Assembly (NCBI GenBank): GCA_951406725.2
Contig: OX597823.1
Coordinates: 32,426,001-32,490,000 of the forward strand
Direction: 5' to 3'
Source of the DNA: Octopus vulgaris
Lineage: Eukaryota
DNA length: 64,000 bases
The notes under the pieces were generated by a model. The model ran no database searches and was not told the origin of the DNA. It saw only the letters and a list, made by a program, of their open reading frames with translations. The position numbers and the translations under genes were made by a program. Below are positions 7,353-57,449 of this stretch, piece by piece (the stretch's first letter is position 1; every line of letters starts with the position of its first letter).

Positions 7353-7563
7353 GTTATGTGCGTGTGTATATATCTCTTTCTTTCTATATGTTTGTGTCCC
7401 TTTATGGTTGTTCCTTTGACAAAAGGTGATTCATAAAATACATATTAGCGTGAGATAAGTATTGGGCTTCAAAAATGTCAATTGAACATATTGATTCTGG
7501 TACTTATTTCTATCCTAATATTTACTTTATGAATCATCGTTTGTCAAAAGTAGAAGCACAAAT

Positions 7564-7601
<38 letters not shown>

Positions 7602-27980: not shown

Positions 27981-28180
27981 TAGATAGATAGATAGATAGA
28001 TAGAGTGGTAGATAGATAGATAAACAGGCAGACAGACTGACATATATATATATGTATTTAAGTCACAATATATGGTTTCAAGTAATTCAGCAATACTCAT
28101 AAAAACAGCTCCTTAATGTATCATTCTACAAACCATAGAATGTACAGTCTGATACAAGAGAACATGATAAGGAGTGTATA

Positions 28181-28302
28181 AAGTTATAAATAACAACAGA
28201 AATAGTATAATGAAATTTATTTAACCATTGGAAAATTCCTATATCACAACAAATTTTCCAATGGTTAAATGGTTATACTATTTCTCTCATCATTTATAAC
28301 TT
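28181..28302. repeat. Imperfect inverted repeat (hairpin)
   Basis: ATTTAACCATTGGAAAATT / AATTTTCCAATGGTTAAAT plus outer AGAAATAGTATAA / TTATACTATTTCT and AAGTTATAAAT / ATTTATAACTT. Confidence 0.75.
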
Positions 28303-28929
28303 AATATTTAATACACACACACACACACATATATGTGTATGTGTGTGTCATTGCGGTTGTGTTTATTCCCCCTCCCCAATCACTTCACAACCAGTGTTGG
28401 TTTGTTTACATTCCCCTAAGTTAGTGGTTTGGCAAAAGAAGCTGATAGAATGAATGTGTACCAGACTTTAAAAATATAAGCTGGAGTCAGTTTGTTCACC
28501 TAAAACCCGCTCAAGGTGCTGCTCCAGACTGGCCACATTCCAGTGACTAAAACAAGCAAATGCTAAAAGGATAGTGAAAGTACAGAAATGAGAAAATTTA
28601 TAAAACATGATATTTCCACTAGTTTTGTTTAACGCATTGCAGTTGTTATTCTTGGTGTTTTGTATTTTGTCAAGCGGACATTAAGATAGGAGGAAAGAAA
28701 ATATTCTAGTTTCTTGTCATCTTTCACTATTTTCTGTTATCTTCTGTTATAGGAGTAGGACTGGCTGTGTGGTAAGTAGCTTGCTTACCAACCACATGGT
28801 TCTGGGTTCAGTCCCACTGCGTGGCACCTTGGGCAAGTGTCTTCTACTATAGCCTCAGGCCTACCAAAGCCTTGTGAGTGGATTTGGTAGACGGAAACTG
28901 AAGGAAGCCTGTCGTATATATATATATGT

Positions 28930-34994: not shown

Positions 34995-35040
<46 letters not shown>

Positions 35041-35045
<5 letters not shown>

Positions 35046-35311
35046 ATGTATAATGTAATAGTTTAGAAAAAAAAAGCCATTGGTTTCATTTCAAGCGAGA
35101 ACTAGACATTTCTTCAGTTTTTCTAAATGATAACCATTCTCTGTGAAGAATATTTTTTAAAACACAAGAATGCTGGTGATAGTTCTTGTGCTTAAAAAAA
35201 ACATTCTTTGCAGAGAACAGTTATCATTTAGAAAAACTGAAGAAATGTCTAGTTCTCGCTTGAGATGAGACCAATGGCTCTTTTTCTAAACTATTACTTT
35301 ACTCATACAAA
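35041..35311. repeat. ~270-bp fold-back palindrome with a hammerhead-like motif on each strand
   Basis: ~125-bp arms, loop ~35171-35182; plus strand TTTAGAAAAA-CTGAAGA(35237)-..-GAGA-CCAATGGC-TC-TTTTTCTAAA, mirrored with intact GAAA on the minus strand. Confidence 0.8.
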
Positions 35312-35460
35312 AATAAACAACTGCTCTTTATTTTATAGGCTATGCTCTTCTCCTGATTTATGATATTGTAAAGATATATATATAAATATATATATATGCT
35401 TTCGGTGAGAATGGTTTTGTTATACAGCGCCGTATTTTACAATCCCATAAATAATAATAA

Positions 35461-35673
35461 TAATAATGGTATTTTTATATAAGCTTAAAGCTTATGGTGA
35501 TCACTGTGCAATGACTAAGGAAAATAGTCTAATAAAGGGGCATATAAACTCTTGACAAAAAAGAAGGCTTTCCTATTCATGAGGGCTTATATGCCCCTTT
35601 ATTAGACTATTTTCCTCAGTCACTGCACGGTGATCACTATAGTCTTTAAGCTTATATAAAAATACCGTTATTA
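35461..35673. repeat. ~210-bp fold-back palindrome
   Basis: Arms 35461-35552 and 35579-35673 are near reverse complements; CTGAGGA half-core on the minus strand. Confidence 0.85.
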
Positions 35674-35699
35674 ATATACATATATTTATATACGTGAAA

Positions 35700-35947: not shown

Positions 35948-36114
35948 CGTATCTGTGGCACCTGTGCAGGTGGCATATATCACGGAGTGGTTGGCGTTAG
36001 GAAGGGCATCCAGCCGTATGCCAGATATGGGCCTGATGAAGCCTATATAACCGTCCATGCTAGCATGGAGAACGGACGCTAAATGATATGATGATATATG
36101 TATGTATGTATGTA

Positions 36115-36396
36115 TGTAAAAATAATGGGTTTTGAATGGCACTATAATAACTGGACAATGGACTATAATAACTGTTATAATTTAATTATCCATAGTTTGA
36201 TATAGTGTTTTGGAATATAAAAATTCCTTCTTCAGATATCCCTAGGAATTGATTGATCCTAGCGATATCTGAAGAAGGAATTTTTATATTCTGAATATTG
36301 TATCAGACGATGGATGATTAAATTACAACAGTTTTTATAGTCCATTGTTGCTATTATAGTGCATTGTTGTGCCATTTAAAACAAATTATTTTTTAC
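36115..36396. repeat. ~280-bp fold-back palindrome with a hammerhead-like motif on each strand
   Basis: Centre CTAGGA ATTGATTGA TCCTAG; GATAT-CTGAAGA(36269)-A-GGAAT..ATTCT-GAAT..GTATC and its mirror. Confidence 0.8.
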
Positions 36397-36469
36397 AAAC
36401 AACACACAATGCTCCAAGCGAACAACAATACTCTCATATATATGTATATACATATGTATATATATAGTC

Positions 36470-41137: not shown

Positions 41138-41389
41138 TATTGTATAGCAGGGGGTCATTATGCCAATAATAAACACCTGCACTGGTTCCATTTCACTTCT
41201 TTATTTATTTGTCAATTGGTTAATCATTTAACCAATTAACTGATTGATGGTTTGATTGACTGAATGATTAATCAGACAATCAATCAGTTATTTAATTAAA
41301 TAGTTAACCAATTGACAAATAAATAAAGAAGAGAAATGGAACCACTGCACGTGCTTATTATTGATGCAGTGACCTCCCAAGATACAATA
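41138..41389. repeat. ~250-bp fold-back palindrome (MITE-like)
   Basis: CTTCTTTATTTATTTGTCAATTGGTTAA / TTAACCAATTGACAAATAAATAAAGAAG and pairing out to both ends. Confidence 0.85.
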
Positions 41390-57192: not shown

Positions 57193-57449
57193 ATTGTGTT
57201 GTGTCTGGGGAGAGTCATTTTCTTTTTGTGCCTTATAATTTAACACACTCACTGGTAAAATTTCCACTTATATTCCTTATTTTTATTTTCCTAAAATTTT
57301 CATTGCATATTGCAACCTTTTCAATAGTCAAGACTATTGAAAAGGTTGCAAGACGCAACGAAAATAAGGAATAAGTGGAAATTTTACCGGTGAGCGTGTT
57401 AAATTATAAGGCACAAAGAGAAAATGACTCTCCCCAGGCACAACAGAAT
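57193..57449. repeat. ~255-bp fold-back palindrome with U3-A8-type hammerhead-like core
   Basis: Centre TTCAATAGTC AA GACTATTGAA; TTGAAAA(57337)-G-GTTGC-AAGAC-GCAAC-GAAA, mirrored on the minus strand. Confidence 0.8.

Follow-up and report, generated by a model that had tools for sequence, protein, structure and literature searches.

The window, by which is meant the whole 64-kb stretch of Octopus vulgaris DNA that was analysed, contains a palindromic insertion in which two short and closely related arms stand head to head (Table 1). By self-comparison of the window, the inverted repeat occupies positions 35037-35315 with a self-inverted identity of 84.4% over 282 columns, in agreement with the inverted arms of about 125 bp reported in the initial annotation. 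The element is larger than was described there, and it is asymmetric, in that the right arm extends by a 64-nt tail to about position 35375. The whole element is about 340 nt long and non-coding, (TA)n runs lie on both sides of the insertion, and folding of the palindrome predicts a rod of -164 kcal/mol and about 130 bp on either strand. The inner end of the left arm was placed at 35185 by mapping against 8 of 10 reference copies; at the junction the arms overlap by 4 nt, the chance of an overlap of at least 4 nt being 0.02.

Table 1. Features of the palindromic insertion, in window positions.
Feature	Positions	Strand	Remarks
Left (TA)n microsatellite	34998..35040	none	Putative insertion target; short ends of the family adjoin TA runs or other simple repeats
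Inverted 5'-truncated 3' end, Hydra-1_Obim-type	35039..35185	-	Ends at the short end without tail; 83% to natural copy L008
Left hammerhead copy	35062..35127	-	Core 10/10, stem II 6/8 pairs, T-run expanded
Head-to-head junction	35182..35185	none	GTTC, 4-nt microhomology common to both arms
Sense 5'-truncated 3' end of Hydra-1_Obim-type element	35182..35311	+	83-90% to dispersed copies
Right hammerhead copy	35227..35290	+	Perfect 10-bp stem I, CUGAAGA, extra nucleotide 35244, GAGA for GAAA
One-sided tail, 64 nt	35312..35375	+	In tandem copies joins pLTR to 5' UTR
Right (TA)n run	35374..35397	none	Putative second half of target; other tail ends also stop in TA runs

Compared with other arms of the family, the two window arms have five derived letters in common, two of which are rare; two rare letters are shared by just 0.2% of 1425 unlinked arm pairs. 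In addition, the arms are identical over 44 nt, from 35220 to 35263 (permutation p about 0.009, for a block picked after the fact). Conversion from arm to arm after insertion is the simplest reading of this identity, and an already mutated template is the alternative source of the letters common to both arms. The right arm is covered by contigs from two other runs of two studies, with 0 and 2 differing letters and one gap each, while no contig runs across the junction; because these contigs carry them, the letters of the right arm are not specific to the present assembly. Contigs of run X4, putatively derived from RNA, leave 35017-35264 uncovered, which counts neither for nor against transcription.

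Sequence comparison identifies each arm as a 3' end of Hydra-1_Obim, which is a Penelope-like element (PLE) of the Hydra clade and was published with the same hammerhead. For Hydra-1_Obim of Octopus bimaculoides, Files S1 and S2 of Craig et al. (2021, PMC8557442) give a length of 2507 bp, a (TA)n target and a hammerhead. Compared by eye, the right arm is identical to the Hydra-1_oBim hammerhead row of File S2 at 83 of 95 nt, positions 35329-35375 of the window match the start of the published sequence, and the linked copy L021 agrees with the published protein at 81 of 85 residues in one stretch. The family is dispersed through the 2.8-Gb genome, where the right arm was matched at 83-90% (40 of 219 candidates scored); a 28-nt motif of the hammerhead region has at least 176 genomic matches at two mismatches or fewer, against 0 for a reversed control, and for the 28-nt stem II region, 29 of the genomic matches listed are free of mismatches. 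Most copies examined extend upstream, by variable lengths, into common ORF sequence for a reverse transcriptase (RT) and a GIY-YIG endonuclease, about 70 nt separate the end of the ORF from the arm, and the copies are 5'-truncated at many points.

The single ORF, with the RT followed by a C-terminal GIY-YIG endonuclease, is found in the linked copies L008, L020 and L039 and not in the window. Upstream ORF pieces carry YRDD, CxCx5C, a YVG-type GIY-YIG core, CxxC and CxH. The CxCX5C linker reads CSCRIRNEC in L008, L019 and L039 and is deleted in L020, and the CxxC and CxH of the endonuclease read CKLC and CPH in L003, L020, L026, L017 and L039. The DKT motif is DKT in L011 and in L059, a locus of a sister family, and AKT in the decayed L039; the RWK motif is KWK in L039 and KWN in L011 (both of two decayed copies), and RWK in the sister family and the published protein. 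In the account of Craig et al. (PMC8557442), such ORF motifs define the Hydra clade. Pfam gave no match on three ORF pieces, and a PDB search with a 717-aa sister protein returned nothing useful; the putative RT and endonuclease labels follow from the motifs and from the match to the published protein, and membership of the Hydra clade from near-identity to its named member. A hammerhead in the 3' UTR/pLTR and insertion into (TA)n were likewise both found, by the match to the File S2 row and by ends that adjoin TA runs. Naiad, the first candidate, was rejected, because its endonuclease is described as N-terminal (PMC8557442).

The insertion thus resembles Hydra-1_Obim in its hammerhead, in the ORF of linked copies, in its (TA)n target and in a tail that equals the published 5' start; it differs in that the window holds the last 130-195 nt or so alone, twice and inverted, with the hammerhead damaged. 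A near full-length natural copy was met at L039:309-2875, with a partial upstream pLTR, tail, 5' UTR and broken ORF. Its partial upstream pLTR-tail-5' UTR arrangement departs from the entry for Hydra-1_Obim in File S1 (PMC8557442), which reads "no pLTR". The tail of L039 continues into the 5' UTR and ORF, and for this reason the tail is read as what comes after the pLTR when copies are transcribed in tandem. The general background invoked in the initial annotation, namely that PLE pLTRs carry type I hammerheads and often insert as inverted partial repeats, is borne out by the match to Hydra-1_Obim; the family, the hammerhead and the inverted arrangement are all already published.

Both arms carry recognizable copies of this hammerhead. 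A relaxed descriptor matched twice in the 64-kb window, at 35237 (+) and 35117 (-), and once in total in 10 shuffled windows; the motif is therefore beyond chance. In the right arm, a type I hammerhead had been annotated, and its 10-bp stem I (35227-35236 with 35281-35290) and the letters CUGAAGA (35237-35243) and GAGA (35267-35270) are indeed present, whereas the extent of stem II and the register of the cleavage site had to be revised. The minus-strand motif annotated in the left arm is also present, with an intact GAAA at 35087-35084. Stem II is an 8-bp helix (35245-35252 with 35259-35266), of which only 6 of 8 positions are paired in both window arms; a mismatch falls at the third pair, and the predicted fold of neither arm forms stem II. 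Both arms also have a C after CCAAUGG, where the family has U (U16.1), so that cleavage at 35280 would need a bulged C beside the core. In terms of the hammerhead position numbers, the A15.1-U16.1 pair followed by H17 with stem III is missing from both, and a UH is reached only via the bulged C.

The core of CUGANGA and GAAA is kept at 9 of 10 positions in the right arm, which has GAGA, and at 10 of 10 in the left; position 35269 is G in the right window arm and A in 51 of 54 other arms. The strict hammerhead descriptor matched 22 of 56 family arms, with neither window arm among them. Core changes of this kind are expected to abolish cleavage, and the hammerheads at this locus are predicted to be inactive. 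In each lone window arm, the 10-bp stem I has a predicted probability of about 0.9; in the full palindrome transcript, this value falls below 1e-50 in the folding prediction. With both arms directed outward, a transcript of either strand contains the antisense arm ahead of the ribozyme, and in read-through this arm is predicted to sequester the ribozyme. Of the earlier proposal that a transcript from either strand could fold as a long rod or as a ribozyme, the folding prediction supports the rod and not the ribozyme fold. An Rfam scan, which had been suggested as a check, returned no hammerhead model at E<=10; its sole matches, to microRNA models, lay below gathering scores and were rejected as generic hairpin matches.

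Across the family, 54 other arms were counted after 27 redundant loci had been dropped. By majority, these arms have a stem II of 8 bp, GAAA, one additional nucleotide behind CUGAAGA and, directly after CCAAUGG, U and then H; 35 of the 54 keep the core whole, 44 pair stem II at 7 or 8 positions, and 8 combine all the features of a hammerhead. A family consensus and a covariation test had been proposed at the outset, and the majority letters do yield CUGAAGA/GAAA/UH, whereas covariation does not rise above shuffles. The test was run on alignment A1, made of 30 of 33 extracted copies and the two window arms, in which the core is invariant by construction, because the 33 copies had been pre-filtered for an intact upstream core, a bias from which the counts over 54 arms are free; 87.5% of cells pair, and 1 double-sided change was found among family copies against 0.7 in shuffles. 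No covariation is expected among copies that decay from few masters, and the result is uninformative on the parent element. The core is changed at 3.4%, compared with 2.7-5.6% in neighbouring columns, which amounts to no extra conservation; a core kept no better than its flanks, together with the lack of covariation, is as expected for neutral decay among copies.

Other Hydra families have different stems around the same hammerhead core (PMC8557442, File S2), which supports a real ribozyme in the parent elements. Stem III is self-complementary in the family, and the intact copy L008 is predicted to form a swapped dimer through stem III, an arrangement that has been described for PLE hammerheads; for the parent hammerhead, a type I motif that acts in dimeric form is accordingly predicted. 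Compared with the minimal and dimeric type I hammerheads of metazoan PLEs set out by Cervera and de la Pena (2014, PMC4209133), where G-C is the usual closing pair of stem II, the pair here is A-U, and the window copies also lack some stem II pairs and the in-register UH.

The head-to-head arrangement recurs in the Hydra-1_Obim-type family, for which 15 cases with an inverted piece were found among the loci examined. In all 11 pairs whose two outer ends reach the 3' UTR, one outer end is short and the other bears the tail; the remaining four cases have a second arm that is internal or cut by the locus edge, and L025 has another repeat after its short arm. No pair in this family is tail/tail, although a tail-carrying query would favour such pairs, and over both the Hydra-1_Obim-type and the sister family the ends are asymmetric in 27 of 29 pairs. 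An arm consisting of the tail only adjoins the short end of a long partner in five pairs (L019, L040, L051, L055 and L058). Moreover, of 10 old-family pairs that could be scored, 7, including the one in the window, have a short-ended arm with more 5' sequence than the tail arm; therefore, neither arm is a plain DNA copy of the other. Four of 12 and 4 of 7 junctions show microhomology of at least 4 nt, where 2% would be expected by chance, and the rest are blunt, overlap by 1-2 nt or contain insertions; among the 12 old-family junctions, five are blunt or overlap by at most 2 nt (L017, L019, L024 and L094) or are interrupted (L025), and three more have 3-6 inserted bases. Four near-identical palindromic stubs of the family lie within 50 kb at C12:6050023-6096224 of genome G000 (L072-L076), probably as a local segmental duplication, and these four pairs were counted once.

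An inverted 5'-truncated copy with a one-sided tail is a pattern described for PLEs (PMC8557442, PMC3846280). In Schistosoma, pairs of hammerheads on opposite strands have been noted at distances of 100-700 bp (PMC4209133). Penelope, Adineta Pen2a and Repbase Penelope-13_HM, the last as annotated in Files S1 and S2 of PMC8557442, share with the window the head-to-head order, a tail on one side only and hammerheads on opposite strands; in comparison with these inverted pLTR insertions, the window arms are too short for any ORF, and the tail measures 64 nt against the 30-40 bp quoted for them. Directly established at the locus are the family to which the arms belong, the difference between their outer ends, a microhomology of 4 nt, a junction that occurs once in the genome and lesions in each of the two hammerheads. 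The palindrome is best read as a single old insertion (probability about 0.85), in which two 5'-truncated Hydra-1_Obim 3' ends lie head to head in (TA)n, likely because both nicked target strands primed reverse transcription of the element's RNA. In such an event, the GIY-YIG endonuclease would nick both strands of the (TA)n target; copying from one 3' end would begin at the short start site, and the second 3' end would use the tail start site, which lies 64 nt to the 3' side. Both cDNAs would end after about 145 and 195 nt and anneal via GTTC, host repair would close the join, and the inserted copy would then decay, with a likely conversion tract between the arms at 35220-35263. The hammerhead would have been carried along as a passenger of the element's 3' UTR.

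A sister Hydra-clade family, 50% identical in amino-acid sequence, contains many stop-free ORFs of up to 717 aa (loci L046-L066 except L061, and L098-L104; for example, L059:1294-3444 on the minus strand). Its copies are about 99% alike and often stand as inverted pairs, and the family was probably active recently; in every copy inspected, the hammerhead core reads CCGAUGA, with C instead of U at position 4. Sixteen of 18 pairs are asymmetric, 7 of the 18 being at loci picked for being inverted pairs, and the two others are tail/tail (L099) and short/short (L104). Variant sharing was scored in this young family on 37 arms of at least 400 nt and at least 95% identity, with L050, L056 and L061 left out. 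Arms of one insertion have 3.2 variants per kb in common, compared with 0.34 per kb between insertions, and differ at 1.7 per kb, compared with 8.3 per kb (12 and 652 pairs, respectively); gene conversion or assembly polishing can also give rise to variants common to both arms. A young insertion at L102 (G000 C17:48475800-48484800) consists of two full pLTR-ORF-pLTR arms head to head over about 6.3 kb, with four hammerhead copies and 0 private differences over 2229 compared sites.

Biochemical work on another clade provides a possible route to such pairs. The purified Poseidon-clade protein studied by Frangieh et al. (2024, PMC11167929) is reported to cut and extend both strands and to use two RT start sites that bracket the tail, and the hammerhead is described there as not needed in vitro. 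No difference in start site between the two strands is reported there, from which the asymmetry seen here does not follow by itself, and the protein belongs to another clade (PMC11167929). It is proposed, at a little better than even confidence, that twin priming is coupled, i.e., that each nicked (TA)n strand uses a different internal start site on the same RNA and that the cDNAs are joined by microhomology. If true, coupled twin priming would account in one step for the inversion of one arm, for a tail on one side only and for arms made of tail alone. The symmetric pairs L099 and L104, and the old-family junctions with little or no overlap, an interruption or inserted bases, speak against it. 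In L1 twin priming, two target-primed cDNAs joined by microhomology yield an inversion; by comparison, the primers here would begin close to the 3' end, each at one of two fixed sites, and sequence overlap between the arms is usual. A literature search on twin priming in Penelope inversions, made by title and abstract in an incomplete library, found nothing on PLEs.

The main rival to twin priming is self-priming on an antisense template, in which the same element and the same debris would result from a fold-back of the template or cDNA, as Arkhipova et al. (2013) proposed for Penelope elements. Self-priming of this kind has been proposed for head-to-head junctions (PMC3846280), the junction GTTC has its complement, GAAC, 14 nt away, which makes a small fold-back possible, and the variants common to both arms would be expected of it. 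Against these points, the window arm with extra 5' bases has no tail, and the tail arm was thus not copied from it, which also applies to 7 of 10 pairs; similarly, the tail-only arms have no overlap with their partners. These counts would also be compatible with fold-back at the level of RNA, and self-priming is considered unlikely, if well short of negligible. A different reading accepts the dead insertion but assigns it a use, namely that a long hairpin RNA from read-through feeds small-RNA silencing of the family. The predicted rod of about 130 bp and -164 kcal/mol would suit such a role, Penelope copies give small RNAs in a rotifer (PMC3846280), and the 44-nt perfect identity of the arms (p about 0.009) preserves the stem. 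However, conversion accounts for that identity without selection, no promoter or host gene was identified, and the family has no intact ORF among 122 scored matches, so that little is left to silence; only the 50%-identical sister family is intact. The silencing reading is held to be decidedly improbable.

The initial annotation had instead inferred a retrozyme- or viroid-like architecture. Put in full, this reading supposes a non-autonomous palindromic mini-element whose RNA alternates between the rod and the ribozyme fold and which is propagated as one piece. In its favour, the element is non-coding, small and strongly self-paired, with a hammerhead-like motif on both strands, animal retrozymes are stated to derive from PLE pLTRs (10.64898/2026.07.22.740005), and the non-LTR retrozymes of Cervera and de la Pena (2020, PMC7229834) are similarly described as small, low-GC, non-coding and PLE-related, with a type I hammerhead. 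Retrozymes, however, are presented as tandem direct repeats that are amplified as a unit and form circular RNA (PMC7229834; tandem direct repeats also in 10.64898/2026.07.22.740005), whereas the window holds a single inverted pair whose junction is unique, and neither direct repeats of the unit nor tandem same-strand hammerheads were found in it. The junction was matched once in the 2.8-Gb genome at up to one mismatch, from which it follows that the palindrome did not spread as a unit; the variant letter combination in stem II of the window arms is present at this locus only, and other inverted pairs break at other points. As the hammerheads on opposite strands point apart, no monomer could be cut out; on both strands an antisense arm lies ahead of the ribozyme, both ribozymes are damaged, and the copies lack covariation above shuffles and extra conservation of the core. 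In view of the unique junction, the outward hammerheads and the core or stem damage in both copies, the retrozyme-like inference was abandoned as very improbable, and the palindrome is ordinary retrotransposon debris, not a retrozyme or viroid-like element. A MITE or fold-back DNA transposon with an incidental hammerhead-like motif would fit the size, the long inverted arms, the TA flanks and the further fold-back repeats in the window; this origin is ruled out by the match to Hydra-1_Obim, and it is also at odds with a second inverted arm match within 1.5 kb at only 3 of 28 other loci, with variably 5'-truncated copies that mostly lead upstream into the RT-endonuclease ORF, and with two unlike outer ends in place of a uniform length with the same terminal inverted repeats.

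The window locus itself matters little, since its family, hammerhead and inverted layout have all been published before. Its wider use is as a warning to those who search for ribozymes and viroids, since a truncated PLE insertion looks like an ambisense-ribozyme rod. With regard to PLE inversion and the one-sided tail, asymmetric ends in 27 of 29 pairs, arms that consist of tail only and the failure of a simple snap-back together offer a concrete and testable model, for which the young octopus sister family with its intact 717-aa ORFs is a test system for coupled twin priming.

In the surroundings of the palindrome, no host exon of at least 120 aa was evident in the six-frame ORF list, and six other fold-backs in the window contain no hammerhead by strict and relaxed descriptors for the canonical, U4C, G3-C8 and U3-A8 cores. 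One of these surrounding repeats, at 35447-35689, is a second fold-back directly beside the palindrome, 84% self-inverted and far more abundant; its summed contig depth reaches about 90,000, compared with about 31 for unique flank (run X1). Five more fold-back palindromes of 130-310 bp, which are possibly MITE-like, lie at 36103-36408, 41138-41389, 57193-57449, 7389-7574 and 28177-28306, and two of these five have relatives in other fetched loci.
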